Shown: one piece after another, positions 4,282 through 64,000 of the stretch
Position numbering within the stretch: the stretch's first letter is position 1
Layout: each line of letters begins with the position of its first letter
Assembly: GCA_018061035.1 (NCBI GenBank)
Contig: JAGOUX010000001.1
Span: 6,817-70,816, forward strand
Origin: Minisyncoccota bacterium
GTDB taxonomy: Bacteria; Patescibacteriota; Minisyncoccia; Phycocordibacterales; UBA9973
DNA: 64,000 nucleotides
Reading direction: 5' to 3'
Translations under genes and position numbers: made by a program
Notes under the pieces: generated by a model
Databases searched by the model: none
The model's input: only the letters and a program-made list of their open reading frames with translations
Told to the model about the DNA's origin: nothing

Positions 4282-5559
4282 TTATTCGTATCTTAGTGCT
4301 GCTATAGGGTCGAGCTTGGCAGCCTTGATTGCTGGGTATAAGCCGAACACTATTCCTGTTAAGGTCGACACAAATACTGCCAAAATCACAGCCATTGGCG
4401 AAATAACAAAAGACCAATCATACCCAGCCACTCTAGCACCAATAGCAATCAAATAAGAAATAAGTATACCAATGATTATACCCAATATGCCTCCCATACC
4501 AGTTAGGACTACAGCTTCTATGAGAAATTGGTTGCGAATTTGCTTTGGTGTAGCGCCAATAGCTTTGCGAAGACCGATCTCTCTTGTTCTTTCAGAAACT
4601 GTAACCAGCATGATATTCATAATTCCTATTCCACCAACAATCAGAGAGATCCCCGCCATTAATCCCAAGAACATGCGAAGTGCATCTGTGATGCTGGTCA
4701 ATACTTTGATTGCGTCTGCCAAATCTCTCACAGAAAAATCGTCATTTTCAGAATTCGTAATTCGATGCTCTTCACGAAGAACCTGAGTTATATCTTCGAT
4801 AGTACTTTTTACATTTTCTGGCGCGTCTGCTTTTAGTCGTATAAATTGAATATAATCAATACCCAATATCTGCCTTTGACCAATTTGAAATGGAATAAAT
4901 ACCTGATCATCTTGATTTTGAAATGCGACTGTTCCCAGTTTCTCTTGAATTCCTACTACTCGAAATGGAATACCACCTCCCTTATCTCCACCTTGTTGAA
5001 TCTTTACTATTGATCCAATTGCGGATGAATTAGGAAATAATTGAGTCGCTACGTCATATCCAAGCACAATCACATTTGCTCCCGCTTTACCTTCTTCGTC
5101 AGAGAAAAATTGACCTTCACTCATTTTTACATTCTGAACTCTAGGATAAGAGCCATCAGTCGCAGTAAATGATGTGTCTACAGATTCTCGGCCAGATATT
5201 ATCGTGACATTACCACGTACAAATTGCGCCACTTCTGCCAAATGAGGCACACGAGATTTGTCCTCTATGGCTCTCATATCAATAGAGCTTAGTGTTTTGA
5301 CCTGTATTCCGAACACGGCTGCGGGTGGACCATTTTCATTGCTTTTGCCAGGTAAAATTCCAATTAGGTTTGTTCCCAATTTGGTAATTTGGCCAAGTAC
5401 GAGTGCTTGAGCACCAGCACCGAGAGATATGATCACAATAACTCCAGATACACCAATAACAATACCCAATATGGTCAGTAGGCTTCGGACTTTTCTTGCA
5501 AAAAGATTTTTAATTATTGCTCGTGTATTTTTGAAGTAATTTGCCATATTACTTGTCAT
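4282..5559 (-). CDS. ABC transporter permease, FtsX/MacB family (second copy)
   Basis: Same architecture as 3025..4278; overlaps the ATPase gene by a few nt. Confidence 0.8.
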   Translation of the reverse strand: MTSNMANYFKNTRAIIKNLFARKVRSLLTILGIVIGVSGVIVIISLGAGAQALVLGQITKLGTNLIGILPGKSNENGPPAAVFGIQVKTLSSIDMRAIEDKSRVPHLAEVAQFVRGNVTIISGRESVDTSFTATDGSYPRVQNVKMSEGQFFSDEEGKAGANVIVLGYDVATQLFPNSSAIGSIVKIQQGGDKGGGIPFRVVGIQEKLGTVAFQNQDDQVFIPFQIGQRQILGIDYIQFIRLKADAPENVKSTIEDITQVLREEHRITNSENDDFSVRDLADAIKVLTSITDALRMFLGLMAGISLIVGGIGIMNIMLVTVSERTREIGLRKAIGATPKQIRNQFLIEAVVLTGMGGILGIIIGILISYLIAIGARVAGYDWSFVISPMAVILAVFVSTLTGIVFGLYPAIKAAKLDPIAALRYE

Positions 5560-6265
5560 CTTCTTCGACTAATAGCTTGCTTCGTTTTTGATTAGAAATC
5601 TTTTCATCAGCAATAATGCTTCCATCCATAATAGTGATGACGCGCTTAGCGTGTTCGGCCACACCTCGATCATGTGTAACTAGAATAATTGTTCTTCCTT
5701 CATCATTTAGTCTTTGCAATATGCTCATGACGATTGCGCCACTTTTTGAATCTAGGTTTCCGGTTGGCTCATCAGCAAATATAACCTTCGGATCACATAC
5801 GAGTGCTCGTGCTATGGCTACGCGTTGTTTCTGTCCACCAGAAATTTGATTTGATAAGAAATTCAATCTATTACCCAGACCCACAGCCTCGAGAGCCTTT
5901 GTGGCCAATTCGGCATGATTTGTTTTTTTGCTATAAGTTAGAGGCAGTATGACATTGTCGAGTACTGTAGTACGAGCAAGCAGGTTGAACGATTGAAAAA
6001 CGAAACCAATTCTTTCGTTTCGAATATGTGCCAACTCGTCATCATTGAAAAGAGCTGTATTTTCGCCATCAAATAAATATTTTCCTCTTGTTGGACGATC
6101 TAGAAATCCAATTGTGTGCATTAGGGTCGATTTTCCCGATCCAGAAGGGCCCATCACAGCCAAAAATTCCCCTTCTTTTACGTCTAGAGATACTCCACGA
6201 AGCACTTTCGTAAGTCCTCCTCCATTGTCGTATTCTTTTTCTATATCTTTAAGCTGTATGAGCAT
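5549..6265 (-). CDS. ABC transporter ATP-binding protein (MacB/LolD-like)
   Basis: Walker A GPSGSGKST, ABC signature LSGGQKQRVAIARAL, Walker B IFADEPTGNLD. Confidence 0.9.
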   Translation of the reverse strand: MLIQLKDIEKEYDNGGGLTKVLRGVSLDVKEGEFLAVMGPSGSGKSTLMHTIGFLDRPTRGKYLFDGENTALFNDDELAHIRNERIGFVFQSFNLLARTTVLDNVILPLTYSKKTNHAELATKALEAVGLGNRLNFLSNQISGGQKQRVAIARALVCDPKVIFADEPTGNLDSKSGAIVMSILQRLNDEGRTIILVTHDRGVAEHAKRVITIMDGSIIADEKISNQKRSKLLVEEDDK

Positions 6266-6267
6266 AA

Positions 6268-7827
6268 TTATGCTTTGATTAAGACGACGAATTCATCACC
6301 AGTATTTAGTCCTGATGTGATTTCTACTTGTCCTCCATCACCTTCCATGCCGGTTGTGACTTCGACCTGCTCCCATTCTTTGGTCTTAGGATTAGTTACA
6401 AGACGAATAGTTTTCTTGCCAGATTTGTCCGTCAGTACTGCTCTACTAGGGACTGAAATAATATTTTCTTTTGCTGAGACTAGAATAGTCATGTTTGCAG
6501 TCATTCCAGGTCGAAGTTCTGGTGTAGAATCTATGCTTGCTGTGACTTTATAATTCACAACTCCAGATATAAGAGTTGAAGATGGATCTACTCTTAGTAC
6601 TTTACCAGTAAAAACCTTGTCGGAACCAAATGCATCAAAAGTTAGATCTACGTGAGCATCTGGAATTATGGATGTTATGTTTGCTTCATTAATATTTGCT
6701 TCCAAATATAAATCACTAACATTTTGTATGACCATAACGTTATTTTGCGCTTGGGCCAATTCACCTAACTTGATATCTACTTTTGTAACTGTGCCATTTG
6801 TCGGTGCTCTTAACAGTGTGTGTTCAAAATTCGCTGATGCTGATTGAACCTGTCCTTGGGCACTTAGAATATCAGCTTGCGCTAGGTTGAGATCAGCGGG
6901 ACGGGCCATAGATTTTTTGAGTGACAACTCGGCATTGCGTTGATTTACTAAAGCTTCAGATGTACCCAATGCAGATTCTTCAGTTTTTAGAGCAGACTGG
7001 TATGCATTGTAATTTGTTACATAGTCAGAAGCATTTTTGTTTGGAATATCAATAACCCAATCTGTAACTCCAGGATTAAGACTTGCAAATGCAATTGATA
7101 ATCCTGAATTTCCTACTGACTGAGGTGATGTACTAACTACACCAGAGGCGGTTACAATTCCGGAAGCATTAAATCTAGTACCATCACCTGCTGTATATAC
7201 TGAAATATGAATTTGGCCTTCACTCGTTTTATTGTATGAACCACTAATAGTTGGTGCAGTCGTAGAACTACTACCATTTGTAGCAACTGCCTCCAGGCTT
7301 GAGCTCAGAAGTTTTTTGTAAGCATTCTCAACTAAAATTTGTTGTTGGGATTTTACTCGTATTTGGTCACTTTTAGCATTATCTAGTGCTACTTGAGCCA
7401 AAGCTACTTCTTCACTCGAAGCTCCGTCGAGGATTTTCTGATATCTCGCTTGAGCTGCTGCTTCTGCTCCTCGCGCAGAAGTTAATGCAGCGAGTTCGGT
7501 ACCTTGATCAAGGGTGGCCAATATCGCACCAGCTCTTACTTGATCACCCACTTTTACTCTAAGTGACTTCACGGTGCCACTTTTTCCGAAAGACAAGCTG
7601 AGATCGGTCGTAGATGTGACCTGCCCAGTAGCCAAGACAGTACGCTTAAGATTAGATACATGAGCCATGTCTGTAGTAATGTTGGCACTATTGTCTTTTG
7701 GACCGAATATTTTATAGCCAAGAAAAAGTACTAAAATAAGTAATAATCCGTAGATTATTTTTTTTGTAAGCGACCATCCAACTATCCGTGCACCAAGATT
7801 GGTAAAAAAGTTTTTTATTTTATGCAT
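6268..7827 (-). CDS. HlyD/MacA-type periplasmic adaptor (membrane fusion protein)
   Basis: N-terminal TM, long coiled-coil/beta-barrel-like architecture, operon position upstream of the ABC ATPase. Confidence 0.65.
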   Translation of the reverse strand: MHKIKNFFTNLGARIVGWSLTKKIIYGLLLILVLFLGYKIFGPKDNSANITTDMAHVSNLKRTVLATGQVTSTTDLSLSFGKSGTVKSLRVKVGDQVRAGAILATLDQGTELAALTSARGAEAAAQARYQKILDGASSEEVALAQVALDNAKSDQIRVKSQQQILVENAYKKLLSSSLEAVATNGSSSTTAPTISGSYNKTSEGQIHISVYTAGDGTRFNASGIVTASGVVSTSPQSVGNSGLSIAFASLNPGVTDWVIDIPNKNASDYVTNYNAYQSALKTEESALGTSEALVNQRNAELSLKKSMARPADLNLAQADILSAQGQVQSASANFEHTLLRAPTNGTVTKVDIKLGELAQAQNNVMVIQNVSDLYLEANINEANITSIIPDAHVDLTFDAFGSDKVFTGKVLRVDPSSTLISGVVNYKVTASIDSTPELRPGMTANMTILVSAKENIISVPSRAVLTDKSGKKTIRLVTNPKTKEWEQVEVTTGMEGDGGQVEITSGLNTGDEFVVLIKA

Positions 7828-7866: not shown

Positions 7867-9087
7867 CTACTTAGTTTTTGATTCGATACGCATCAATGCT
7901 AAGACAAAGGCACCTCTTCTTAGGTCAGTATTAAGTTCCCGCGATTTAGCTAAAATCATTTTTGCGGAATCATCGAGCATGGGTTGTAATTTCTCAAATA
8001 CTTGCTGTTCCGTCCAGTGCTCCTTTTTGAGATTTTGATCCCACTCGAAATATGAGACTGTTACTCCACCTGAGTTGGCTAGAATGTCCGGAATTACTTG
8101 AATTCCCTTTTTAAATAAAATCTCATCTGCTTCTGGTGTCGTCGGCCCATTGGCTAATTCGAGCACCACTTTGGCCTTCACCATATTTGCATTAGTTTCG
8201 GTAATCTGATTTTCGAAAGCTGCTGGAATCAGTAGATCGCAAGGTAATTCCAATAATTCTGCGTTAGAAATATTTTTGCTACCAGGAAAACCAGACAAAC
8301 TACCGGTATTTTTCTTATGTTCAGAAAGTTTTTCAATATCCAAGCCTTCGGAATTATAGATACCTCCTTTTGAATCCGAAACTGCTACCACCTTATGTCC
8401 ATTTTTATTCCAAATTTTAGCCGCGAAGCTACCAGCATTGCCAAATCCTTGCACAGCCACTTGGCACACATCTGGAAGACCTAAATCTTTCCTTAATGAT
8501 TCGAATACATAAAATCCTCCTTGTGCTGTGGCAGTACCTCGGCCCTCTGAACCACCTTTATCTAGAGGCTTACCAGTAATCACAGCTCCAGTAGTGTCTC
8601 CTGTAATTTTTCCATATTCATCGGCAATCCAAGCCATCATTTGTGGTGTGGTGTTTACATCGGGGGCAGGGACATCCTTTTGTGGACCCAATACGTCACT
8701 TAATCTTCTGGCCCAGCCTCGTGATAATCTTTCGAGCTCTCCTGCTGAAAGCTTTTTCGGATCAACAGTGACTCCACCCTTACCACCTCCCATGGGGATA
8801 TTCACCACTGCGCACTTGAGAGCCATCCAGAAAGCGAGAGCCTTTACTTCATTTACTTCGGTATCCTGATGATATCTAATACCGCCTTTGTAAGGACCTA
8901 GTGCGTTGTTATACTCAACTCGATATCCATCAAAAATAGAGAGAGAACCATCGTCCATAGTTACGGGAATAGAAAATCTAATATCACGATCTGGCACTCT
9001 CATGCGCGCAAGAAATTCTGGACTAAAGTTTTTAATCTTAGCTACTTTTTCTAACTGCGACATCGCGTTCTCGTAAGGATTGTGCAT
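7867..9087 (-). CDS. gdhA: Glutamate dehydrogenase
   Basis: KGGIRYH and GGGKGG motifs of the Glu/Leu/Phe/Val dehydrogenase family; 406 aa. Confidence 0.85.
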   Translation of the reverse strand: MHNPYENAMSQLEKVAKIKNFSPEFLARMRVPDRDIRFSIPVTMDDGSLSIFDGYRVEYNNALGPYKGGIRYHQDTEVNEVKALAFWMALKCAVVNIPMGGGKGGVTVDPKKLSAGELERLSRGWARRLSDVLGPQKDVPAPDVNTTPQMMAWIADEYGKITGDTTGAVITGKPLDKGGSEGRGTATAQGGFYVFESLRKDLGLPDVCQVAVQGFGNAGSFAAKIWNKNGHKVVAVSDSKGGIYNSEGLDIEKLSEHKKNTGSLSGFPGSKNISNAELLELPCDLLIPAAFENQITETNANMVKAKVVLELANGPTTPEADEILFKKGIQVIPDILANSGGVTVSYFEWDQNLKKEHWTEQQVFEKLQPMLDDSAKMILAKSRELNTDLRRGAFVLALMRIESKTK

Positions 9088-11315: not shown

Positions 11316-11465
11316 AAAATTTTATAGTTATAGTCATTAATAATACCGACCTATATAAAGAAGATTATTCTCTATATAGCTACATTATATAAAATATATG
11401 TTAAATTAGCTAAATTAGTTATCCCCTTAAAATAATCATACAAAATAGGGATAATACATCTATAT

Positions 11466-12020
11466 TTATTTCTTATTAAATGCCATGTTAAACATTCCCA
11501 AAGCTTCAACCAGTTCTTCTCTCTCTATGATGATCTTCAAAAAGGCAATAATCAGTCCTTTTGTGATAGGAATTTCTTCCTTATTTTCTACCAGTATTTC
11601 AGCCTCGACAAAATATCTAATATTTTCAGAATGATCAAATTTTACATTATCCATGTCTACATGCATGGTTGTATTTTGATATTTACCTGCCCAACTTTGT
11701 CGATCTTTTGAGAGTTTTAAAATTATTGGCCCAGACTCAATCACCTTCATGAATTCTGCCCGAGTCACTTCCCTTTCTGTTTCCTTGGTAATTTTATTTC
11801 CATCCACAATTTCTGTTTCTTTCTCTGTGTATAGAATATTTTTCCCTTCATCTCGATAACGTTTGATATTATAGCCACCTTCGGCTAATTTAGTTGCCTC
11901 AGTATAATAATTATCTTGATGCACAGTATCTCGTGAGATAAAACCATCTCTTGTGAGTGTTTGAACTAATTTTGCCCTTTCCTCTTTAGTTATTTCTACT
12001 TTATATTCTACTTCGTACAT
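11466..12020 (-). CDS. CYTH-domain (triphosphate tunnel metalloenzyme) protein
   Basis: N-terminal EVEYKVEI and C-terminal ExExE (FVEAEILVE) pattern typical of CYTH. Confidence 0.5.
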   Translation of the reverse strand: MYEVEYKVEITKEERAKLVQTLTRDGFISRDTVHQDNYYTEATKLAEGGYNIKRYRDEGKNILYTEKETEIVDGNKITKETEREVTRAEFMKVIESGPIILKLSKDRQSWAGKYQNTTMHVDMDNVKFDHSENIRYFVEAEILVENKEEIPITKGLIIAFLKIIIEREELVEALGMFNMAFNKK

Positions 12021-12022
12021 AA

Positions 12023-13123
12023 TTATTTATTATAAGATGACTCAAGTACTGCCATTTTTGCTAATAGCACAGGATGAGTGATGAACGGTTTAGTATATTC
12101 TAGGAATTCAATAAATAAAGGTATCTTTTGTGCTCGCTCATATTCAAATGCTTTCTCTACAGCTTGATATTTATCTATTTGTCTTGCGAGTGAAGCAATT
12201 TCATCATCAGATAATTCAAATTTAAGCCATAAGTCTAGTATCTCTTGTCCCTTGCCCCCAAGCTCGCTACAAATTTTAGTTAATGCTTCTCGCTCAGCAA
12301 TAAACTTGTCTTCCTTGAGTTGTTTTAGCTTGATTTTATCTTCTTCAACCACTATTTGATCACCATTAATAGCCTCAGGCCAATCGTGTATCTCTAGCAT
12401 ATCAAGCAATTCTCTCTTTTCCATTTCTGATAAATCAGGTATCTCTAGAGCCACTATTCGAGCTGAGATTGTGTGTTGCTGTACAGTTTCGGGATTCTTG
12501 ACTGAGCGCTTAACCCAACCTTTTCTTTTAAGTTTACCTAACTCTGCCCATGCATCGGGAGCTAAATGTGCGAATCTAAGTTTAGGACCTTGTTCCTGAA
12601 GTGGCTTGCCATACTTTTCATACATATCCTCAATTCCAGCCTTCAGAGCATCAAGACCCATTATTTTCCTCCGCTCATCAACATGTTCCGGGTCCTTTAT
12701 CGGCTTTGGCACGAATTCTCCATTTATTTCATCGAATTGTGTTCCATAGGTTTGTTCACCTGTTTCCTTTAAGAGAACTCGATCCTCTAATAAAGCTATG
12801 TTCTTTGAGTTGATCTCGCTGTGAGGCAACTTCTTCATTAATTCCAAACAATATCTTTGAAAAGTTACGTCATGATCAGCGTGCTGGACAAGTAGCCAGG
12901 CATCTTCAGAGCCATTTTTGCCGATATTAGATATGGTGGGCCAGCCAATCTCATTAACGATCTCTTTCATCCTGTCAGTATTTTTCCTGTCGACTTCATA
13001 ATCCCAAAAATCGTCATCTTTTAGACTTCTATCACGCATGTCCTGATCAATATTAACCATTTCTTTTAACTCTAGTGCGATCTTAGGATACATTATTGGT
13101 TGTGGAATTGATTCGTTTTTCAT
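12023..13123 (-). CDS. HD-domain phosphohydrolase (YfbR-like) with uncharacterised N-terminal domain
   Basis: H...HD motif (QQHTISA ... EIHDWPEAINGD) in the C-terminal half. Confidence 0.55.
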   Translation of the reverse strand: MKNESIPQPIMYPKIALELKEMVNIDQDMRDRSLKDDDFWDYEVDRKNTDRMKEIVNEIGWPTISNIGKNGSEDAWLLVQHADHDVTFQRYCLELMKKLPHSEINSKNIALLEDRVLLKETGEQTYGTQFDEINGEFVPKPIKDPEHVDERRKIMGLDALKAGIEDMYEKYGKPLQEQGPKLRFAHLAPDAWAELGKLKRKGWVKRSVKNPETVQQHTISARIVALEIPDLSEMEKRELLDMLEIHDWPEAINGDQIVVEEDKIKLKQLKEDKFIAEREALTKICSELGGKGQEILDLWLKFELSDDEIASLARQIDKYQAVEKAFEYERAQKIPLFIEFLEYTKPFITHPVLLAKMAVLESSYNK

Positions 13124-15467: not shown

Positions 15468-16448
15468 CTACCCTAAAGTAGCCAAAAAATCATTAGTTAT
15501 AGTTTCGATCTCAGATGCAGTATTTGCTTCCATCAGCTTAACTCGGAGTTCCTTTGCCCCATCAAAATTATTAACATAAGCTTTGTAGTGCTTCTTCATG
15601 ATTGCAAAGTTCTTGTATCCACCAAGTTTCTCTTCGAATAATTTTGTATGTTCGACCATGACTCGTAATTTCTCCTCTACCGACGGTACTTTTGTAAAGG
15701 ACTGTCCTTTACAAGAAAATAGCCAGGGGTTGCCAAAGATAGCTCTACCGAGCATAACACCATCACAACCAGTATCTGCAACTTTTTTCTCAGCATCAGA
15801 GATATCAAGAGCATCGCCATTGCCGAAAATGAGAGTATCTTTCTTCATTTCATCGCGAATAGCTAAGACATCCTTCATCAAGTCCCAGTGAGCTGGAACT
15901 AGAGACATTTCTTTTCGAGTACGAAGGTGAACTGTGAGCACTGCTATATCTTCTGACAATAGTTCGCGAATCCATGTATCTATCTCATTTTTATTATATC
16001 CAATGCGAGTCTTTACCGATATTGGCAATCCTTGACCTCCTTCGATGGCAGCACGAATAACCTCGCGGGCAAGCTTGGGATCTTTCATCATCGCTGCTCC
16101 TGCGCATTGCTTCTCAATGCTTTTATCGGGACAACCCATATTAATATCAATACCATCAAAACCAAGCTCCTTGCAGAGTTTTGCAGCTTCGCGGATATTC
16201 TCAGGCTTGCCTCCAAATATCTGCGCTACAATCGGGTGCTCATTAGGGCTAAATTTTAAATCAATCAGAAGTTTTTCGCGTGCCTGAAGGTGGGCTAATC
16301 CATCAGCAGAGACAAATTCAGTCCAGAATACATCAGGCTTCCCATATTTGTTTATAATCTCTCTAAACACACAATCCGTAACATCAGCCATAGGCGCTAG
16401 CACCATTATTGGTTTATTAAGTTTTGCCCAAAATCCTAAATTGCTCAT
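15468..16448 (-). CDS. tRNA-dihydrouridine synthase
   Basis: LAPMADVTDCVFRE and DINMGCP motifs of the Dus family; carries an in-frame palindromic insert (see findings). Confidence 0.85.
   Translation of the reverse strand: MSNLGFWAKLNKPIMVLAPMADVTDCVFREIINKYGKPDVFWTEFVSADGLAHLQAREKLLIDLKFSPNEHPIVAQIFGGKPENIREAAKLCKELGFDGIDINMGCPDKSIEKQCAGAAMMKDPKLAREVIRAAIEGGQGLPISVKTRIGYNKNEIDTWIRELLSEDIAVLTVHLRTRKEMSLVPAHWDLMKDVLAIRDEMKKDTLIFGNGDALDISDAEKKVADTGCDGVMLGRAIFGNPWLFSCKGQSFTKVPSVEEKLRVMVEHTKLFEEKLGGYKNFAIMKKHYKAYVNNFDGAKELRVKLMEANTASEIETITNDFLATLG
15691..15714. repeat. 24-bp perfect palindrome TTTGTAAAGGACTGTCCTTTACAA inside the dus CDS
   Basis: Identical to 38471-38494 inside rsmI; in frame, encoding CKGQSFT. 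Confidence 0.85.
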
Positions 16449-24604: not shown

Positions 24605-24688
24605 GCCCAGGTGGCGGAATTGGTAGACGCGATAGACTCAAAATCTATTGTTGGCAACAACATGAGAGTTCGATTCTCTCCCTGGGCA
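24605..24688 (+). tRNA. tRNA-Leu (anticodon CAA)
   Basis: Hand fold: acceptor GCCCAGG/CCUGGGC, anticodon loop CUCAAAA, long variable arm, T-arm GAGAG-UUCGAUU-CUCUC; 84 nt. Confidence 0.85.
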
Positions 24689-24783
24689 CAGAAACAGTAA
24701 ATTTATTTACTGTTGTGGAGAGATCGAAAGGATTTTCGTTGTTGAATGAAATGAAACCGAAAATCACCCGGCTAAGTAATAGC

Positions 24784-24806
24784 CGATTCTCTCCCTGGGC
24801 ACAGAG
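24784..24806 (+). repeat. Direct repeat of the tRNA-Leu 3' end (identical to 24671-24693)
   Basis: CGATTCTCTCCCTGGGCACAGA is repeated 113 bp downstream. Confidence 0.8.
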
Positions 24807-24819
24807 AAAATTAAACAAT

Positions 24820-38112: not shown

Positions 38113-38802
38113 CTAAGACACAATTACAGTAAATTCCCCTCTTTGCTTTTCAGTATTTTTTACAAAATATTCGAGAACTTCGGCAGGAGTGCCAGTTTTA
38201 AATTCCTCATATATTTTTGTAAGTTCACGGGCAACACACACCTTCTTCTCTGGGCAAAATTTTATTAACGATTCCAAAGTTTTTAAAATTCTGTGGGGAG
38301 ATTCATAAAACACCATTGTCCGCTCTGATGATGCTATTTCTTTAAATAATGTTTCTCTACCCTTTTTGTGCGGTAAAAATCCAAGAAAAGTAAATTCATG
38401 AGTCGGAAGTCCTGAAGCCGAAAGCGCGGTGATCACAGCAGAAGCTCCAGGTATAGGCACCACCTCCACATTTGTAAAGGACTGTCCTTTACAAAATTTT
38501 TCTTTTATTTGTGAGACAAGCATGGCCCCTGGGTCAGATATGCCTGGCGTGCCTGCGTCTGAAACCAATGCCAAATCTTTACCTTCCTCAAGCATTTCAA
38601 AAATTTTATCTGTCTTGGACAACTTACTCTGCGCGTGGTAGCTCATAGTAGGCTTGCTGATAGCGTATTTATTTAAAAGATTTTTAGTTGTACGGGTGTC
38701 TTCGCAGAGTATTAGATCCACACTTTTAAGCGTTTCAATTGCCCGAAGAGTGATATCTCCCATATTGCCTATTGGTGTCGCTATTACATAAAATTTAGAC
38801 AT
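38113..38802 (-). CDS. rsmI: 16S rRNA 2'-O-methyltransferase RsmI-like (tetrapyrrole-methylase fold)
   Basis: N-terminus LYVIATPIGNMGDITLRAIETL; carries the same in-frame palindromic insert as dus. Confidence 0.8.
   Translation of the reverse strand: MSKFYVIATPIGNMGDITLRAIETLKSVDLILCEDTRTTKNLLNKYAISKPTMSYHAQSKLSKTDKIFEMLEEGKDLALVSDAGTPGISDPGAMLVSQIKEKFCKGQSFTNVEVVPIPGASAVITALSASGLPTHEFTFLGFLPHKKGRETLFKEIASSERTMVFYESPHRILKTLESLIKFCPEKKVCVARELTKIYEEFKTGTPAEVLEYFVKNTEKQRGEFTVIVS
38471..38494. repeat. Same 24-bp palindrome inside the rsmI CDS
   Basis: Identical sequence; encodes CKGQSFTN on the minus strand. Confidence 0.85.
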
Positions 38803-38907
38803 AGAAATAATATAGCATATAAATTATTAAAGGGGCCGCAACATACAGTCGCGACCCCTTCGAGATGATCCTCGAGTTTATTTTGTTTGCCCTCGTGGCA
38901 ATAGTGT

Positions 38908-39420
38908 TCAGCGCGGCCTGGAGAGCCAGAGATGAGGCACCAGCTCTTGGAGAGCCTCAGCTTGGGCCTCAGTGAGACCTACAGCCAGCACGGTGCCGAG
39001 CGCCGTCGTCATCAGTTTGGTCTCAGCGAAGGGGTCGCCATCCTGCATCAACCGCCTCCGGTTGAAGGCCGCCACGATGCGTGACGACTCCTCGTTATTC
39101 AGGCAAGGCGTCGTAGAGCTCATGGTGCAGGCCCCGACCAACAACGTCTCCTTTTTATCCGCAAACATCGCGTGGATGAACCAGGCATCCCCACCAGCAT
39201 TTATCTTTGTGACGTCTGTGCCGTACCTGGCCTTCGTCGGCTCGGGCAACAGCAATAGCGCAACGCAAAATGCTGCGCCAACACCACCGACAATCAATGT
39301 AGTGACCGCCAGCCACCACGCGAGGATCTGAGACTGTCCACCCGCCAGCCACTTGATTGAATCCGCCACACAAAAAGTGCAAACAAGCACCACCAACACT
39401 AACACGATCTTTCTGAACAT
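38908..39420 (-). CDS. Hypothetical two-TM membrane protein (GC-rich island B)
   Basis: GC-rich codon usage; likely start at MFRKIVLVLVV; GC hairpin terminator downstream at ~38831-38858. Confidence 0.4.
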   Translation of the reverse strand: MFRKIVLVLVVLVCTFCVADSIKWLAGGQSQILAWWLAVTTLIVGGVGAAFCVALLLLPEPTKARYGTDVTKINAGGDAWFIHAMFADKKETLLVGACTMSSTTPCLNNEESSRIVAAFNRRRLMQDGDPFAETKLMTTALGTVLAVGLTEAQAEALQELVPHLWLSRPR

Positions 39421-39598
39421 TTTTCCCCCTTGAGTTAATATACGATCCAAGATAAAGCACTAAAAATTCAAATATATTAAATTCTTAATGCTTTATCCAA
39501 GATTTTTTATTTTAAATGAGCAAAACATTATACTCTTGTAGTATAGCATAAATTATAGCAAAAGTCAATATTATTGTATTTAAAATAAAACTAATACA

Positions 39599-39629
39599 GG
39601 TCGGAGGAGAATGGTTTTCTCCGCCGACC
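39599..39629 (-). terminator. Rho-independent terminator for the island-B gene 39640..40272
   Basis: 13-bp stem GGTCGGAGGAGAA/TTCTCCGCCGACC, then a U-rich tract on the minus strand. Confidence 0.6.
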
Positions 39630-39639
39630 TGCTGTGTGA

Positions 39640-40272
39640 TTACAAGTGATTTTCAATCCGCAGGGCGGATTTGAAGAACCGGATCTTGTCATGCCGGTTC
39701 TTGGAATTGCAGCCCGCCTGGTACGCCAGGATGGCGTCCTTCTTGCGGACTACTCGCGCATCGGCCTCCAAGTTGGCCACCCGTCGATCTCCCTGCACCG
39801 GCATCGACGAAGCAGGTTCCGGATCAACACCCTTCCGCTGGAGTGACTCGAGAAGGCCGCGGTGCGACTTCTTGTGCTTCTCGGCCGAGCCGTTGTCCTC
39901 GAAGGCGACGAACCACTTCTTGAGTTCGTACAGGTTCCGGCACGCATCGAACCCAAGACGGAGTGCTCGACGTTCGTCCTCCGGCAGGTCGCGCTTGGCC
40001 AAGATCCGCTCGAACCTTGTACGAAACTTTTCCCGTCGTTCGAACGCCACGCGATTCTTCTTAAGGCCCGCGAGACAGGTGTTCACGAAATCGATGGCCT
40101 CCGTGATCACTTCGGGTTTTTTGTCCCCGAGAACCTCGGCGTACTCTGAATAATCCAGAGCCTGCCTAGCCGCTGAAGCCAACGCCGTTTTCAGGATGTT
40201 CATCCTGAGATTGGCGTCGACTTCCCCCCGCAGCCTGTCTGCCTGTGTCAAAAGCTCACTACGTTTCGACAT
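39640..40272 (-). CDS. Hypothetical charged/helical protein (GC-rich island B)
   Basis: 210-aa ORF with strongly GC-biased third codon positions; the antisense ORFs are Arg/Ser-rich artefacts. Confidence 0.5.
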   Translation of the reverse strand: MSKRSELLTQADRLRGEVDANLRMNILKTALASAARQALDYSEYAEVLGDKKPEVITEAIDFVNTCLAGLKKNRVAFERREKFRTRFERILAKRDLPEDERRALRLGFDACRNLYELKKWFVAFEDNGSAEKHKKSHRGLLESLQRKGVDPEPASSMPVQGDRRVANLEADARVVRKKDAILAYQAGCNSKNRHDKIRFFKSALRIENHL

Positions 40273-40315
40273 CTACCCCCCACTGAAAACTGTCAAACAA
40301 CAAACAACAAACAAC

Positions 40316-40346
40316 AAAAAACTAGTATTATTTATACTAGTTTTTT
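40316..40346 (-). terminator. Palindromic terminator after atpC (end of the atp operon)
   Basis: AAAAAACTAGTAT-TATTT-ATACTAGTTTTTT, perfect 13-bp arms flanked by A/T runs (bidirectional), next to an (AACAA)n simple repeat. Confidence 0.65.
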
Positions 40347-40361
40347 GGAAAAAGTCAATCT

Positions 40362-40808
40362 CTATTTTCTATATTTTCGCACCTTCCACTTGTCGGCAAT
40401 TTTTACACGTGTAAGTGATCGTTCGAGCTCAGACACGAAGTGCTCGTAGTCTACATGCTCTTTGTTTTCCATTAGCTTGTGAAGCTCTTCACTTCTCGCT
40501 ATGGCCTGAGCAATCTTTTCATCTCCAAGCTCGGATACATGTTCCGCGAAATCAGCAAGCACAGCAACCTCTGTCTCCCCGTGTGATCCGTGTTTGACTT
40601 CGAGAAATCCGCCAACAATAGCCATAGGTACATGCTCGCCATTTACTACAGCCACAACATCTCCAGATCCAAGAGCGGAAATAAGACCGATATGCTCAGG
40701 CAAGATAGTTATCTCCCCTTCTGTGGTAGGCAAAGAAACCTGATCCACATTTTCTTCGAGAATCAGTTTCTCTGGTGTCACTATCTTTAATTTTATTTGT
40801 TTTGACAT
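40362..40808 (-). CDS. atpC: ATP synthase F1 epsilon subunit
   Basis: Position and sequence in the atp operon. Confidence 0.8.
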   Translation of the reverse strand: MSKQIKLKIVTPEKLILEENVDQVSLPTTEGEITILPEHIGLISALGSGDVVAVVNGEHVPMAIVGGFLEVKHGSHGETEVAVLADFAEHVSELGDEKIAQAIARSEELHKLMENKEHVDYEHFVSELERSLTRVKIADKWKVRKYRK

Positions 40809-40851
40809 AATTTTGAAAAAATTTCAGATTCGAAATTTTTAAAGACCTGAA

Positions 40852-42249
<1,398 letters not shown>

Positions 42250-49879: not shown

Positions 49880-50299
49880 ATGAAAGCCAAGACTGCTCTT
49901 TCCATTCTCGTCTTCCTGGCGTTGGGACTCAGCGTCGCCTGCTCGAAGTCTTCACCGACAGCACCGACACCAACCCCGGTCACCTACACGGTGGCTATCA
50001 CCCCGACTGCTTCCACGTTGACCTTCAAGGCCGGCGCGGGCGCTCCGCTGACCTTCACTGCCAGAATCACAGGGAGTGACGGTACCACAGTGGCACCATC
50101 CGCATCTGATGCGGTGGTGATCACCTTCGGCACGTCTGGGGTCGCGACAGCGACGATGCAGACGCCCGTGGCGACCAGCACCAGTCTGATCCAGACCGTC
50201 AGCTTTGGTGGCACGAAGGTCGGCACAACCACGGCAACGGCGACCATGTCCAACCCCAAGTACGTGGGGAACGTCACCGTGACCATCGTCGTGCAATAG
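49880..50299 (+). CDS. Lipoprotein with Ig-like (Big_2-like) Thr/Ala/Val-rich domain, GC-rich codon usage
   Basis: Signal peptide with lipobox LSVA-C; beta-rich T/A/V composition; strong third-position GC bias. Confidence 0.6.
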   Translation: MKAKTALSILVFLALGLSVACSKSSPTAPTPTPVTYTVAITPTASTLTFKAGAGAPLTFTARITGSDGTTVAPSASDAVVITFGTSGVATATMQTPVATSTSLIQTVSFGGTKVGTTTATATMSNPKYVGNVTVTIVVQ

Positions 50300-50319
50300 A
50301 CGGTGAGACAGAACAAAAA

Positions 50320-50348
50320 GCGAGAGTCTGCTCACGGCAGACTCTCGC
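50320..50348 (+). terminator. GC hairpin after the lipoprotein gene
   Basis: GCGAGAGTCTGC-tcacg-GCAGACTCTCGC, perfect 12-bp stem, no U-tract. Confidence 0.5.
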
Positions 50349-50600
50349 AATAACACAACGAACATAAGTTCGCATTATCTAAAGTCGTTAGCACCCCAAA
50401 AAAGCGGTACTAACGGCTTTTTTGATTTCTGTTATTTATTTCACAAACTGCAAACTCCTCACTCAAAAAACTTCCAACAACAAACTAACTATTAAAATAT
50501 ATTAAATCCAGATGGCATGCAAAAGGCCCCGTCGACATCTGTCGACGGGGCCGATTTTCTTCGTGCTCAAGCCTACCATTGGTTCTGAATGTGACCAATA

Positions 50601-50930
50601 TCACACCGGCGACATTTCTGCCTCGGAAGAACCATTACTGCTGTTTTTGTGGTGTCGGTGACGCCCTTGATACCTCGCAGGGTACTGGCTTTCGTTTTCG
50701 ACCAAACGTTCGAGAAGAAGGATAAACTTGTCGAGAATGCCGTGCTTATTCATCCGGCGTAATTCGACCATTGCCCAGTACTGGTCCTTATGCGAGAAGA
50801 ACAAATAGACCAGTCGCACACGCAACTTCTTGATTCTTTCTGCTTGTCGCTTTAGGCCTCCCTTTTTACGATGTGGGTATACATGCAGGTCAACACGATC
50901 CCTTTCGCACCGCCTCTGGTTCACATGCAT
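50601..50930 (-). CDS. Hypothetical protein, possible degenerate HNH-like remnant
   Basis: RRCERDRVDLHVYPHRKKGG loosely resembles the C-x2-C...DHxxP..GG segment of HNH nucleases but lacks the second Cys pair; GC hairpin terminator at 50525-50552. Confidence 0.25.
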   Translation of the reverse strand: MHVNQRRCERDRVDLHVYPHRKKGGLKRQAERIKKLRVRLVYLFFSHKDQYWAMVELRRMNKHGILDKFILLLERLVENESQYPARYQGRHRHHKNSSNGSSEAEMSPV

Positions 50931-51021
50931 CAGGTCTTCGCCTTTCGCTTAAACCAAAGTACACCAAGAACTAATTACAAAAATATTCTACATCAGTAAA
51001 AATTTTGTGCAATATAAGATT

Positions 51022-51993
51022 TTATTCCTCGTCTTCTGTTCCCTCTTCTCCAGACTCTAGTGCAGAAAAAATATCTTCCATATAACCTTCGAGTATCTTT
51101 GGCAGATTGTGCCAGGATTTCTTGAGTCTGTGGTCTGTGATTCTGTCTTGTGCGAAATTATAAGTGCGGATTTTTTCTGAACGATCACCAGAACCAATCT
51201 GATTCTTGCGAACACCGGCATACTTGGCAGCTTCCTTTTCTTCTTCGAGCTGTTGAAGCTTGGCCATCAATATACCCATAGCTTTCTCACGGTTTGCTAG
51301 CTGGCTTCGTTCATTAGTAGAACGCACATCTATGCCAGTAGGTTTGTGAATCAATCGCACCGCGGTCTCCACCTTATTCACGTTCTGTCCGCCCTTTCCA
51401 CCAGAGCGAGAATACTCCATTTCAATATCAGAAGGATTAACTTCAAAATTTACTTTTTTGCGGATAGGCAACACTGCGACAGATGCAGTAGAGGTATGCA
51501 CACGGCCGTTTTTCTCGGTAGCGGGCACTCTCTGTACTCGGTGCACGCCTGTCTCATATCGCATCATCTTATATACATCTTTCCCACGTATTTCAAAGCT
51601 GGCTTCTTTATATCCACCTTGGTCACTCTTGGATTCATAATTGGTCTTCCAATTCCATCCTCGCATTTCAGAGAATTTTTCATACATGTGTGCCAGCTCC
51701 CATGCGAACAAAGATGCCTCGTCTCCTCCGGCACCTGCTCGCACTTCTAGGACGATCTCATTTGGAGATTCTTCCTCTTCTTTATCTTTCGCAAGGATAT
51801 CTTCAATCTGACCTTCTACTGCTTCTCGCTCGAGCTGTATGCCCTTCAATTCCTCAGCTGCAAGATCATGCAGTGTCGCATCACCTGCAAGCATTTCTCG
51901 CACTTCTGCCTCCTGACGCATAAGGCGCTCCAAATTTCCTGCGAGATAATTCGTACGGTGGTCTTTCTTTAATTCATCTATATTTAATTCCAT
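51022..51993 (-). CDS. prfA: Peptide chain release factor 1
   Basis: GGQ motif ([13 protein letters not shown]) and the PAT tripeptide (RVPATE) diagnostic of RF1; start taken at MELNIDEL. Confidence 0.85.
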
Positions 51994-52059
51994 AAATTGA
52001 TATATTAATTCTATCACACAAAGCAAAAACACCCTGCAAATACAGGGTGTCCATGGTGT

Positions 52060-53838: not shown

Positions 53839-54492
53839 TTATTTTGCGTCTGGAGTAGCTTCTCCTGCACCTTCTTCTTCTTTCTTACCTTTCTTTTCTA
53901 CTTCGATAGCAGATAGATCAACTGGAGCTGCTTCTTCTTCTTTTTCTTCAACCTGAGCAACGATAGAAGCGACAACTTCTGTAGCCGGAGTTATAGCTTC
54001 AACACCTGATGGAAGCTTGATGTCAGCAACAGTTACTACATCTTCGAGAGTATTCAATCCTGTGACATCTGCAACAAGATTATGAGGAAGATCCTTAGGA
54101 AGAGCTTCGATTTCGATTTCGTGTAGAACCTTAACAAGGTTACCAATTCCACTCTTCACAGCTCCGGCTACACCTTCGAATTCGAGAGGAACATTGACCT
54201 TGATCTTCTTCTTCATGTCGATAGCAAGGAAGTCAGCATGTATAGGCTCGCTAGTAACAGGGTCTACCTGCACATCGTGGATAAGTACATCTACATCTCC
54301 TTCTGGAGTTGAGACAACAATAGCAGAAGACTCTCCGGCATCTCTCCAAACCTTCTTAAAATCAACAATAGATACAGAGATAGAAGTAGTTTCCTTGCCT
54401 GCTCCGTAAAAAACAGCAGGGATTTCTCCCCCTTTTCTTAGAACATCTAGTTTTACTCCCTCATCTCGCTTTTTAGCTTTGATTACAAACAT
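53839..54492 (-). CDS. rplY: 50S ribosomal protein L25 / general stress protein Ctc
   Basis: N-terminal KAKKRDEGVKLDVLRKGGEIPAVFYG; long form with acidic C-tail. Confidence 0.8.
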   Translation of the reverse strand: MFVIKAKKRDEGVKLDVLRKGGEIPAVFYGAGKETTSISVSIVDFKKVWRDAGESSAIVVSTPEGDVDVLIHDVQVDPVTSEPIHADFLAIDMKKKIKVNVPLEFEGVAGAVKSGIGNLVKVLHEIEIEALPKDLPHNLVADVTGLNTLEDVVTVADIKLPSGVEAITPATEVVASIVAQVEEKEEEAAPVDLSAIEVEKKGKKEEEGAGEATPDAK

Positions 54493-54623
54493 ACAGACAA
54501 GTATATACAAAAAATTTAAAAAAGCAAATAAAAAAGCCGTCAGTGCTCTTCCGTGGAAGTCTTAACGACTTTGACTATATGGACGCGGTAGGCAAGCCTT
54601 GTTCTGCCTGCCTACCGATATCT

Positions 54624-55070
54624 CTATCCGAACATGACCTCGAAGCCAGCTTCCTTGGCCTCGCGGACGAGGAATGCCTCCGTCATGGAATCATCCCCAA
54701 AACTCGGAAGAAAGAGCTTTGGCGCTGGCTTCTCGTCCGTATTCTTCCGACGGGCACGAGGCCGAGCTGAGACGAGTCCGTGCTCCTTCCACTCGTGCTC
54801 ACCCGTGTACTGAACCAGCCAGAGATACGACGCACCGATGCCAGCCACTTGATGACTCTCTGGGATGTACGGAACGCACGCCCAAGTGCAGCCGTGCAAG
54901 GCCGTACGAAGCTCCGGCAACGGATTGATCCGAAACCGGTAGCCGACATCGAGGTGCGACTGGATCAGTCGAAGCGCGTCCGACAAAACCAAGCGACCCC
55001 CGGGGTCAGGCTGTCCATCCAGCATCGCCATGAGACGATGATGAAAACTACGATTACTCTCTTTGTGCAT
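54624..55070 (-). CDS. Hypothetical protein (GC-rich island D)
   Basis: 148-aa GC-rich ORF; GC hairpin GGTAGGCA...TGCCTACC downstream. Confidence 0.35.
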   Translation of the reverse strand: MHKESNRSFHHRLMAMLDGQPDPGGRLVLSDALRLIQSHLDVGYRFRINPLPELRTALHGCTWACVPYIPESHQVAGIGASYLWLVQYTGEHEWKEHGLVSARPRARRKNTDEKPAPKLFLPSFGDDSMTEAFLVREAKEAGFEVMFG

Positions 55071-55188
55071 GGGGCTCTCCCACAGTCTCGCGGACTAGCT
55101 CACCCTTGGAACGATTCCCTCGAAGCTCTGGTGACGAGCTTGTGCATTACGAAAATTACCATACCACATTTATAGGAAAAAGACAACC

Positions 55189-56901
55189 CTAGACCTTGTG
55201 CTCGACTTTATGTTCTATAGCTAAATGAGAAGAAATATATTCCCTTGTTCCCCCTTCCTTTTCCGTTGGAACTTTCTTGCCGGGGTTTAAAATATTCTTT
55301 GGATCGAAAGCAAACTTGATATCCTTGAATATAGCGGTGACTCTCGCGCCAAACATCTTTTCTAGATATGGTGTGCGGATAATACCGTCATTGTGCTCCG
55401 CAGTAATCGAGCCATGATAATGCATCACGAGATCATAGACCTTGTCAGAAAGCTCGGTGATAATTTGGGCAGTATCAGGCCGTGAGAAATCCATGAGCGG
55501 AATGATGTGAAAATTGCCATCACCAGCATGACCAGCGATAGTATAGGTCAGATCGTATTTGCTCAATATTTTATTAAGCTCTGGTATGAATTTAGGTAGG
55601 AATTCTGGGCGCACGATGATGTCGTCGATGAATGGAGCAGTTCTTTTGCCTTTCACATGCTTGCGAAGAAGCGCAAAGCTGTCTCTGCGAATATCCCAAT
55701 ATTTATTTGCTTCAGATTCGTTCTTGGTTATGTGGGTCTTAAGGCCGAAAGGCTTGATTTTTGCGACCAATGCCTCGCATTTCTTTTGTACTTCTTCTTC
55801 GCTATTGCCGGCAAATTGCGCGAGGATCACCATCTTTGGGAATCCGCCACGAACCATCATGAAAAATTCCGGCAAGAATGACCACATCATTTTAAACATA
55901 CCCACGAGTCCTTTGTTCTTTAAAAAATCTGGGAAGAACTTCACTGCAAGTGCCAAAGTCTTGTCGTCATAAGTCTCCAAGGTTTCGGGATCCAGGGTCA
56001 GCATCTCATCTACGAGTCTGCCGAGAGGCATAAGGTCCTGCATGAATACTGCCACGAGCTTGGTGTGCTTGATGTCCGGCAATACTTTGAAAGTTATTTC
56101 GGTAACTATGCCGAGAGTACCCTGAGAGCCGACGAGTAATTTGTTCAAATCAAACATGCCATTCGCTGTCATCACATTCCAGATATAATATCCGGCGGAA
56201 TTTTTGCTCACCTTTGGCTTCGCTTCCTTTATTTCCTCTTTGTTCTTCTCGATCAGATTATAAATCTGCTTATACACTTCTCCTTCGAAGGATTTCTCTG
56301 CCATTTTTTGCGCGAGCTCCTTGAGATTTAATGGCTTAACCACATATTCATTACCATCAGAGAAAATAACTTTTGCCGAAAGTACATAATCTTCTGTTTT
56401 ACCGTATTTGAGTGTTCGCTCACCTGCAGAATTGTTGCCATACATACCACCCATAGCATTGAGACTCTTTGATGCGGTATAGCAAGGCAATATCAAACTC
56501 TTCTCGAGGGTTATCTTTTCAAAATCACGGTAATACATACCAGGCTGGACCGTTATAGAATATTCCTTTTGAGTTAGGCTTCCAGGATATTTCTGAGGAA
56601 TGTGATCAATGAATTTCACCAAGTGATTCATATATCTGGTGAAGTCGAGAATGATCGACGGCCCTATCGCCCCTCCAGACATATCTGTGCCGGCACATCT
56701 TGCAGTGATCGAAAGAGTTGGGCGAACCTTTTTGGTGTAGTTGACCCATTTTACGATGTTCTGAACATCCAATGAATCCTTGGGATATAGCACGAGCTTC
56801 GGCTTCACCTCTAGTAGGCTCGCGTCGTGAGAATATTTATTGAGAGTCTCTCGGCTATCATCGACATCTCCCTTGAAAAATTTTTTAATTTCGTCTTTCA
56901 C
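55189..56901 (-). CDS. FAD-linked oxidase (GlcD / D-lactate dehydrogenase / alkyl-DHAP-synthase-like)
   Basis: FAD_binding_4-type N-terminal domain and a large C-terminal cap; 570 aa. Confidence 0.7.
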   Translation of the reverse strand: MKDEIKKFFKGDVDDSRETLNKYSHDASLLEVKPKLVLYPKDSLDVQNIVKWVNYTKKVRPTLSITARCAGTDMSGGAIGPSIILDFTRYMNHLVKFIDHIPQKYPGSLTQKEYSITVQPGMYYRDFEKITLEKSLILPCYTASKSLNAMGGMYGNNSAGERTLKYGKTEDYVLSAKVIFSDGNEYVVKPLNLKELAQKMAEKSFEGEVYKQIYNLIEKNKEEIKEAKPKVSKNSAGYYIWNVMTANGMFDLNKLLVGSQGTLGIVTEITFKVLPDIKHTKLVAVFMQDLMPLGRLVDEMLTLDPETLETYDDKTLALAVKFFPDFLKNKGLVGMFKMMWSFLPEFFMMVRGGFPKMVILAQFAGNSEEEVQKKCEALVAKIKPFGLKTHITKNESEANKYWDIRRDSFALLRKHVKGKRTAPFIDDIIVRPEFLPKFIPELNKILSKYDLTYTIAGHAGDGNFHIIPLMDFSRPDTAQIITELSDKVYDLVMHYHGSITAEHNDGIIRTPYLEKMFGARVTAIFKDIKFAFDPKNILNPGKKVPTEKEGGTREYISSHLAIEHKVEHKV

Positions 56902-63369: not shown

Positions 63370-63654
63370 ATGGCAGCGATTCCAAAGATTAAGGACGAGG
63401 TGTTCTTCAACGTCAACGAGGAAGGGATCCGCGCAGTTGGGGTCACGAATGAGGCCGGCGTCTTCATCGACGTCATGCCCGAAGAACCTCCTCAGGGCGC
63501 CGACGTGAGCGAAGCCGATCTAGCCAAGTGGCTGGCGGATGAGATCGATCCGACTGGCTTCAGCCAGATTGAGGTCGTGAAGGTCAAAAACGATCCGTTG
63601 ACCTTCAGAATTGATGACGCCAAAACTGGCGAGCTCCTTGACGCCAGCGAGTAG
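63370..63654 (+). CDS. Hypothetical acidic protein (GC-rich island E)
   Basis: 94-aa GC-rich ORF with SD GGAAAGG 5 nt upstream, a TTGACA -35-like hexamer at 63295, and a GC hairpin at 63665-63690 downstream. Confidence 0.4.
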   Translation: MAAIPKIKDEVFFNVNEEGIRAVGVTNEAGVFIDVMPEEPPQGADVSEADLAKWLADEIDPTGFSQIEVVKVKNDPLTFRIDDAKTGELLDASE

Positions 63655-64000
63655 ACAAGAAGATAGGGTGGCGACCACACGGTCGCCACCCTCGCGAGAA
63701 AATATATCAAGCACCGAAGAGCATATGCCCGATCGGTGCTTTCTTCGTTTTACCCTTAATGTGCTAAAATATATGGACTTGTCCCGTTATAAATTTAGCT
63801 CGCGGGATTTTGTAAATAAAGATTATTAATTAAAATTTATAATGGGATGCAAATTATTTGGATATTATTGGGAGTTATCGCAGGAGGCCTAGTAGCATAT
63901 GCTATCCTAGGAAAAAAGAGAGATGATTCAAATGGAGCCAAGGATCAATCCTTACTTCTTCTTCAGCAACAAATGGCCGAGCTCGCGAGAGCCCTTGATT

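Follow-up and report, generated by a model that had tools for sequence, protein, structure and literature searches.

A palindrome in the rsmI gene of a Minisyncoccota bacterium as a probable in-frame copy of a REP-like hairpin family associated with RAYT-like transposase genes

The rsmI gene on contig JAGOUX010000001.1 of a Minisyncoccota bacterium (assembly GCA_018061035.1) contains, in the middle of its coding sequence, a perfect palindrome that recurs in a second gene, dus. Both genes lie in a stretch of 64,000 nucleotides (contig positions 6,817 to 70,816, forward strand), hereafter the window, to which coordinates refer unless another locus is named. The question raised by this locus is how one palindrome came to be read in the same frame in two genes. 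The rsmI palindrome is likely to be a copy of a repetitive extragenic palindromic (REP)-like element, belonging to a hairpin family of the Candidate Phyla Radiation (CPR) that is associated with genes for REP-associated tyrosine transposases (RAYTs), the copy having entered the gene in frame, where a surface loop of the protein tolerates it. The features concerned are the following.

38471..38495, minus strand: REP-like palindrome copy in rsmI, codons 104-110 (C-K-G-Q-S-F-T); the plus strand reads TTTGTAAAGGAC-T-GTCCTTTACAAA
15691..15714, minus strand: second 24-nt copy, in dus, with the same orientation and frame as in rsmI (C-K-G-Q-S-F-T)
38113..38802, minus strand: host gene rsmI (16S rRNA C1402 2'-O-methyltransferase, PF00590)
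15468..16448, minus strand: host gene dus (tRNA-dihydrouridine synthase, PF01207)

The sequence TTTGTAAAGGACTGTCCTTTACAA occupies positions 38471-38494 in rsmI, and the identical 24 nt are present at 15691-15714 in dus. A second copy of the dus sequence with different flanks had been described in the initial annotation, and this is confirmed, except that the left flank quoted for rsmI (acat) is off by one position, the palindrome being preceded by caca and opening with TTTG. A repeat search stretches the pair to 27 nt with an identity of 26/27. The palindrome has arms of 11 nt (12 nt in rsmI, 38471-38495) around one central base, and four of its six reading frames, read directly from the sequence, are open. 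Both copies are situated mid-gene, at approximately codons 104-110 of 229 in rsmI and 247-253 of 326 in dus.

The window proteins were aligned with 120 RsmI homologues (82-92% identity) and 120 Dus homologues; those with a source name belong to Candidatus Nomurabacteria / Paceibacterota (CPR, Patescibacteria), and the bacterium of the window is assigned there through them. The peptide CKGQSFT occurs in one homologue of each set, namely P0001 among the RsmI proteins (92% identity) and P0121 among the Dus proteins (98% identity). The RsmI stretch between ...SQIKEKF and VEVVPIPG holds from about 0 to 25 extra residues across the 120 homologues. Nearly all other Dus proteins read NPWLF(S/A)-G-K-VP(S/T), for example LFS-G-KVPS, at this place, and the window protein is about six residues longer. 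Judged by these alignments, CKGQSFT is an insertion and no conserved motif.

Coincidence or convergence, in which selection would favour CKGQSFT in each of the two proteins and codon usage would make the DNA identical, is hardly credible. The 23-mer TTGTAAAGGACTGTCCTTTACAA is found exactly twice in the window and in none of 100 dinucleotide-preserving shuffles, the peptide is absent except in the closest RsmI and Dus homologues, and the region is a loop of variable length. Chance as such was ruled out by the same shuffles together with the restriction of the peptide to the closest homologues. What can be said for convergence comes from a 21-mer scan of species-representative genomes, which returned only three orthologous xer-like recombinase genes of Oscillospiraceae (L001, L002 and L003). 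The match consists of 26 nt, TTTTGTAAAGGACTGTCCTTTACAAG (L001 3846-3871; also L013 and L016), exact to the dus copy and encoding LVKDSPLQ, an ordinary-looking segment of a tyrosine recombinase of the usual length. This match is probably a coincidence, its length of 26 nt being a little surprising.

The history of the two insertions can be followed in a relative. Contig Ga0502775_0000424 (65.6 kb) is syntenic with the window at a DNA identity of approximately 70-80%. Its rsmI gene (L022, the gene of the 92%-identical P0001) carries the palindrome as TGTAAAGGACAGTCCTTTACA, whereas its dus site (L030) is empty and reads ...TTC GCG AAG GAG CAT AAT ATT CCT... Since one site is filled and the other is empty in the same relative, two separate insertions took place, first into rsmI and later into dus. 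The gain of the two copies at different times is the behaviour of mobile DNA.

In an AlphaFold2 model of the window RsmI (mean pLDDT 79.7), residues 104-110 form a loop leading from helix 91-104 to strand 112-117. The predicted loop position agrees with the variability in length and with the tolerance of an insert.

Folded as single-stranded DNA, either strand gives a hairpin of 10-11 bp with an energy of -7.8 to -9.2 kcal/mol and a z-score of -3.4 to -5.3. A search of the whole window against Rfam 15 gave four tRNAs only and no family overlapping the palindrome. In a scan of the window for weaker copies, using AAGGACNGTCCTT with two mismatches and the generic pattern RAAGG-N3-7-CCTTY, only two non-palindromic chance matches were found besides the two copies. 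An intrinsic terminator was considered and rejected: only the rsmI copy fits the pattern, and it does so on the antisense strand alone.

Copies of the element exist beyond the window. A scan of metagenome contigs with the 19-mer core GTAAAGGACNGTCCTTTAC gave 17 loci, mostly of low GC content and from groundwater or sediment, and metagenome Ga0172379 contains seven copies distributed over five contigs. Some of the copies are intergenic and form part of longer hairpins, e.g., CTAAAATATAGTAAAGGACAGTCCTTTACTATATTTTAG. Another lies in frame in tgt, where it encodes YSKGLSFT directly before the ALF.IVQGG motif. Candidate in-frame copies are present in a Fumble-family kinase gene, a SAM methyltransferase gene and one unnamed open reading frame (ORF). 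No match was obtained in a scan of viral contigs, and a phage origin was rejected on that ground. By the standard set in the initial annotation, its interpretation would fall if no further copies existed anywhere and relatives conserved the peptide; further copies do exist, and the peptide is not conserved.

The palindrome also exists in variants at the rsmI site of other Nomurabacteria. In L024 the site holds an in-frame doublet, AAGGACAGTCCTT-AAGAGAGTTTCCCC-AAGGACTGTCCTT, encoding LQGQSLREFPQGLSL, and in L025 it holds AAGGTCGGACCTT-AAGCGAATTTCCCC-AAGGTCCGACCTT, encoding KGRTLSEFPQGPTL. In both cases the hairpins are inverted and separated by a conserved spacer of 14 nt, and their stems differ by compensatory changes; in-frame doublets of this kind are the architecture of a REPIN. 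When 19 copies were aligned, 92.6% of the stem cells were paired and 6 of the 11 pairs had changed on both sides. This level of pairing and co-variation was reached by none of 500 shuffles, and slid controls paired in 32-49% of cells.

The same loop sites accommodate unrelated palindromes. In rsmI of L028 (6001-6708) the loop contains the hairpin ACGTCAACA..TCTGC-TATC-GCAGA..TGTTGACGT, e.g., ACGTCAACAAACTCTGCTATCGCAGAAAATGTTGACGT, and in dus of L029 (6001-7050) it contains the palindrome GAAAATTTTATGCTGAAAATTTTC. Palindromes of several families have settled in frame at the rsmI and dus loop sites, which are hot spots in Nomurabacteria. An in-frame hairpin with a 9-bp stem also occurs at one and the same site of miaA/IPPT in three genomes (L024 16781-16801, L031 19067-19087 and L025 17733-17753). 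It has two versions, TACACAGGC-GTT-GCCTGTGTA and TACGGAGGC-GTT-GCCTCCGTA, which differ by a double compensatory change that preserves pairing. Further in-frame perfect palindromes were noted in L027, in secA (8260-8280, GGAC-A-GTCC type, ..SQGLSLRG..), in a Mur ligase gene (6945-6971) and at 6551-6573, as well as in a holB-like gene of L024 (11808-11828) and a PaaX-like gene of L026 (10798-10820). Some of the palindromes in housekeeping genes are extra copies of the local RAYT hairpin and adjoin the RAYT gene. Nomurabacteria genomes may contain in-frame hairpin inserts as a general rule.

Conservation of the palindrome raises the possibility that the hairpin is kept for a host function, such as mRNA stability or processing, an antisense block or a replication or recombination signal, and that its mobile origin is secondary. 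The rsmI genes of the window and of L022 differ at 131 of 690 positions (81% DNA identity), yet none of these differences falls in the 21-nt palindrome, although the adjoining bases have changed. Because the probability of this under codon-position-specific divergence is about 0.006, the palindrome has been kept beyond coding constraint; selection on its structure could be responsible, as could a cognate enzyme that homogenises or recognises it. The pairing preserved by compensatory stem changes would suit a host function as well, but such conservation and co-variation are equally expected from recognition by a transposase or from homogenisation. The T-rich run that follows the rsmI copy on the plus strand, antisense to the gene, makes that copy terminator-like; no T-run follows the dus copy, which does not fit the pattern of a terminator. 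Most close relatives, moreover, do without the insert at both the rsmI and dus sites, and the genes that carry it have no relation to one another (rsmI, dus and tgt, with a kinase and a methyltransferase gene as candidates). We consider a host role as the main explanation improbable; it is compatible with a mobile origin of the hairpin.

The link to a transposase comes from four metagenome contigs (L007, L010, L014 and L018), on which the palindrome adjoins a gene for a protein of 194-236 residues. The proteins of L014 and L010 match Pfam PF01797, Y1_Tnp ('Transposase IS200 like'), and those of L007 and L018 are their homologues by tblastn. In L014 and L007 the start codon is preceded at a distance of 17-20 nt by one copy, a second is inside the ORF and a third forms its last codons. 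The copies of L014 are at 1186-1208, 1386-1408 and 1886-1908, and those of L010 (2130/2329/2826) are laid out in the same way. L018 has a doublet, GAAGGACAGTCCTTC - spacer - GGTAAAGGACTGTCCTTTACC, on either side of the gene.

Three further Y1 homologues were examined, two in Nomurabacteria assemblies (L026 and L027) and one in L032, bringing the association to seven loci. Each has its own version of the hairpin upstream, in the ORF and at the 3' end, which differs between loci and matches within a locus. The version of L026 is TTGTGAAGG-ACCTT-CCTTCACAA (also given as GTGAAGG-ACCTT-CCTTCAC; copies at 9958, about 10160 and 10678). That of L027 is TGTGAAGGT-TCG-ACCTTCACA, also given as GTGAAGGT-TCG-ACCTTCAC (5245, about 5440 and 5956), and that of L032 is TTGCAAAGGAC-C-GTCCTTTGC, also given as GCAAAGGAC-C-GTCCTTTGC (265, 461 and 961). 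The hairpin thus co-varies with the transposase gene that it flanks.

The internal copy encodes the family-wide loop R-K-G-R-S-F-T-E-L-F and the terminal copy encodes ..F-V-K-D-G-P-L-Q-stop. Among 120 RAYT-like homologues, the internal motif [KEQ]-G-[RPQL]-[ST]-F is present in 75 and a tail resembling K-D-G-P-[SL]-Q in 24-44; the two motifs result from translating the hairpin in frame 3 and in frame 1, respectively. Neither was found in the RsmI and Dus sets apart from the CKGQSFT insert of P0001 and P0121. Since co-varying hairpins form both the ORF-internal loop and the last codons, the sequence of the RAYT-like protein is partly dictated by its own DNA substrate.

Within NCBIfam these proteins match REP_Tyr_transpos (NF047646) best, with E values of 1e-11 to 4e-17. 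At E<=1e-10 the Y1/RAYT-like family has 7042 homologues; where a source is named, it is Paceibacterota, Nomurabacteria, Moranbacteria or Minisyncoccia, and one homologue bears the name RayT. The best match of the L014 protein in the PDB is E. coli TnpA-REP (4ER8), with HFH aligned to the HUH motif and YIHLNP aligned to the catalytic tyrosine.

The gene order RAYT - PaaX_M - (small ORFs) - GrpE - S9 - L13 - L17 - RpoA is found in both L026 (10001-13516) and L032 (296-3005), and a PaaX-like gene lies directly downstream of RAYT in L014 and L010. This order, common to two different genomes, points to a fixed chromosomal home of the gene and to vertical inheritance. Judging from these gene maps, the transposase looks like a vertically inherited, locus-bound gene of the RAYT kind and not like a hopping insertion sequence (IS).

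The opposite view is that a Y1 gene between two hairpins is an active IS of the IS200/IS605 type, the dispersed palindromes being its solo ends or PATE-like derivatives and not REPs served by a domesticated, single-copy RAYT. Both views involve single-strand hairpin chemistry of one kind; they differ in the class of element and in how it would evolve. The Pfam name of the proteins points that way, as do the hairpins flanking the gene, which are direct by their loop base in L014, L010, L007, L027 and L032 and resemble the left and right ends of such an IS; in L026 they are inverted (loop ACCTT vs AAGGT). The NCBIfam IS200 model, on the other hand, fits far more poorly than the RAYT model (21.6 bits, with a cutoff of 55, against 62.5 bits for L018, and no match for L014), the closest structure is TnpA-REP and not the TnpA of IS608 or ISDra2, and the conserved gene order described above speaks against a hopping element. 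L027 contains three Y1_Tnp genes within 16 kb (1-536, 5279-5983 and 11454-12122), which might suggest IS copies; they are, however, divergent, matching the L014 protein at 58%, 39% and 22% identity, and two or more of the three have their own hairpins. The first of them has the hairpin ACTTGGCGGTT-A-AACCGCCAAGT twice, once upstream (561-585) and once within its own length (83-105). A tnpB partner was not observed. On this evidence, an active IS is an unlikely source of the palindromes.

The RAYT loci also bear on the role proposed for the dyad itself. The initial annotation regarded the palindrome as a signal at the level of DNA, of the kind expected for a DNA-binding protein, and this general idea is borne out: the dyad probably matters to such a protein, given that it flanks Y1 transposase genes. 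For the same reason, the likeliest recogniser is a RAYT acting on a single-stranded hairpin and not a dimeric repressor acting on duplex DNA. An operator, meaning a duplex site for a dimeric transcription regulator, would account for the perfect dyad with its 11-nt half-sites, and in the RAYT loci, where one copy precedes the start codon by 15-35 nt, that copy could also regulate the RAYT gene. Both window copies, however, lie deep in coding sequence, and the half-site TGTAAAGGAC has no other occurrence in the window, in promoters or elsewhere, with one mismatch allowed. No promoter-like site was seen beside either copy, and the inserts are absent from most relatives. The operator-like role that had been suggested for the rsmI copy must be considered very improbable.

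The preferred reading, an in-frame copy of a RAYT-associated REP-like element, would imply the following course of events. A RAYT gene elsewhere in the genome would supply a Y1 HUH enzyme of the IS200 superfamily, which would recognise the hairpin in single-stranded DNA, cut and rejoin the element and so spread its copies in trans. In gene-dense genomes many landing sites would be coding, and copies there would survive only if they kept the frame, brought no stop codon and fell in a tolerant surface loop. Survival inside genes is plausible because four of the six palindrome frames are open and little intergenic DNA is available. The rsmI copy would have added about six residues net to the helix-strand loop, and the dus copy would stem from the same element, inserted independently at a later time. 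Both copies were presumably mobilised by a RAYT, which this genome presumably encodes.

Several observations weigh against this reading, beginning with the direct orientation of the flanking hairpins in five loci, which is more IS200-like. Only two copies are present in 64 kb, far below the numbers of classical REP families. No RAYT gene was detected in the window with 120 queries; the RAYT neighbourhood of the relatives (PaaX, GrpE, S9 and L13) does not fall in the window either. The nearest RAYT-flanking copies are centred on G or C, while the window palindrome is centred on T/A. The head of the hairpin is GTAA (window and L014), GTGA (L026 and L027) or GCAA (L032), it pairs with the 3' end, and it is not GTAG. 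The RAYT-like proteins score 43-62 bits against the curated cutoff of 80 for NF047646; with the RAYT model as their best match and yet below its cutoff, they form a divergent lineage. Exact insertion boundaries and a target motif are not definable, the filled and empty sites (L030 and L031) being too diverged. Mobilisation by a RAYT is putative for every member of the hairpin family.

A wider proposal can be put forward tentatively, although we regard it as rather doubtful: that a CPR-wide RAYT lineage carries three co-evolving hairpins (upstream, inside the ORF and in its last codons), an unusual arrangement, and that its REP/REPIN offspring repeatedly colonise the same surface-loop hot spots of housekeeping genes in frame. 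If so, transposase-driven hairpins would be a substantial source of lineage-specific protein insertions in CPR proteomes.

Other features of the window were noted in passing. Further perfect palindromes, unrelated to that of rsmI and dus, are located at 24693, 40315, 50320, 50525 and 63665; sited after ORF ends or a tRNA, they look like terminators. The tRNA at 24605-24688 is followed by the palindrome AACAGTAAATTTATTTACTGTT. Its 3' end, CGATTCTCTCCCTGGGCACAGA (24671-24701), is repeated 113 nt downstream (24784-24814), and this duplication could be an att-like trace of an integrated or excised element. The G+C content rises to 0.46-0.47, compared with about 0.39, at 38800-42000, 50000-52000, 54000-56000 and 63600-63700. 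These segments contain GC-rich terminator-like palindromes (50320-50348, 50525-50552 and 63665-63692) and ORFs, and may represent acquired DNA.

A full-text search of the literature gave no paper linking RAYT or REPIN with CPR, Patescibacteria or Parcubacteria, and none of these three names is mentioned in PMC6006769. REPs inside genes are known already; the host group is apparently new, REP/RAYT in CPR not having been described before. Three further features seem to be new as well: a head other than GTAG, the large proportion of copies that lie in frame in RNA-modification genes, and a RAYT gene carrying its own hairpin both internally and as its C-terminal codons. The explanation of an odd in-frame palindrome as mobile DNA prevents it from being misread as an operator or a conserved protein motif, and it extends REP/RAYT systems to the CPR. 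In these compact genomes, hairpins persist inside essential RNA-modification genes and alter the lengths of protein loops. If this is general, it would provide a simple mechanistic source for part of the unexplained indel variation of CPR proteins, and the hairpins could serve as markers of recent strain divergence. Co-varying hairpins in the coding sequence of a transposase offer, in addition, a route to the study of RAYT-REP co-evolution.

Among known systems, the element resembles the Rickettsia palindromic element RPE-1 (Ogata et al. 2000, as cited in PMC3733652), reportedly a selfish palindromic DNA whose copies interrupt housekeeping genes in frame in a genome that is likewise small and reduced. 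RPE-1 measures 100-150 bp (30-50 residues) and is tolerated in surface-exposed parts of proteins; it is not known to have a transposase. The element described here is, in contrast, only 24 nt long (7 residues), and a RAYT-like gene is associated with it.

With the IS200/IS605 elements (IS608 and ISDra2) and the palindrome-associated sequences derived from them, the hairpin family shares the Y1 HUH superfamily, direct subterminal hairpins on either side of the gene and single-strand chemistry. It is distinguished from them by profile and structure matches that favour RAYT, by conserved synteny and by showing no sign of multiple identical copies.

Intragenic GTAG/CGTC REPs are known from Opitutus terrae and from uvrA of Thioalkalivibrio, and RPE-4/RPE-6 from Rickettsia conorii (Di Nocera et al. 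2013, PMC3733652). They occur as monomers and dimers in genes that remain intact, with related genes affected at about the same site across species (PMC3733652). Here too, the inserts appear as extra residues relative to homologues and the genes are not destroyed, but the tag and stem are different and the phylum is another one. The genes with inserts in PMC3733652 belong mainly to DNA repair and replication, whereas those found here serve RNA modification (rsmI, dus and tgt). The CGTC elements are without a dedicated transposase (PMC3733652), while the present hairpin family has one. The degenerate REP heads listed in that paper (GYAG, GYRG, GTRG and GTMG) all end in G.

The closest parallel is provided by the well-described REP/REPIN-RAYT systems (REPtrons) of Enterobacteria, Pseudomonas and Stenotrophomonas (Nunvar 2010; Bertels & Rainey 2011, PMC3116915; PMC3337134; Messing 2012, PMC3479197). 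Common to both are a short, hairpin-forming palindromic repeat (20-25 nt) that occurs as singlets and inverted doublets (L024, L025 and L018), and a Y1 HUH gene flanked by cognate hairpins in seven related loci (L007, L010, L014, L018, L026, L027 and L032). In both, the hairpin co-varies with the transposase lineage and the transposase resides at a conserved chromosomal locus. The CPR system differs in its host, in its low copy number, in its mostly direct flanking copies and in a head (GTAA/GTGA/GCAA) that lies within the stem, compared with the free GTAG of classical REPs. Unlike REPs in the usual extragenic position, both window copies are intragenic and in frame, as are many of the others, and the RAYT ORF itself holds one copy internally and ends within another.

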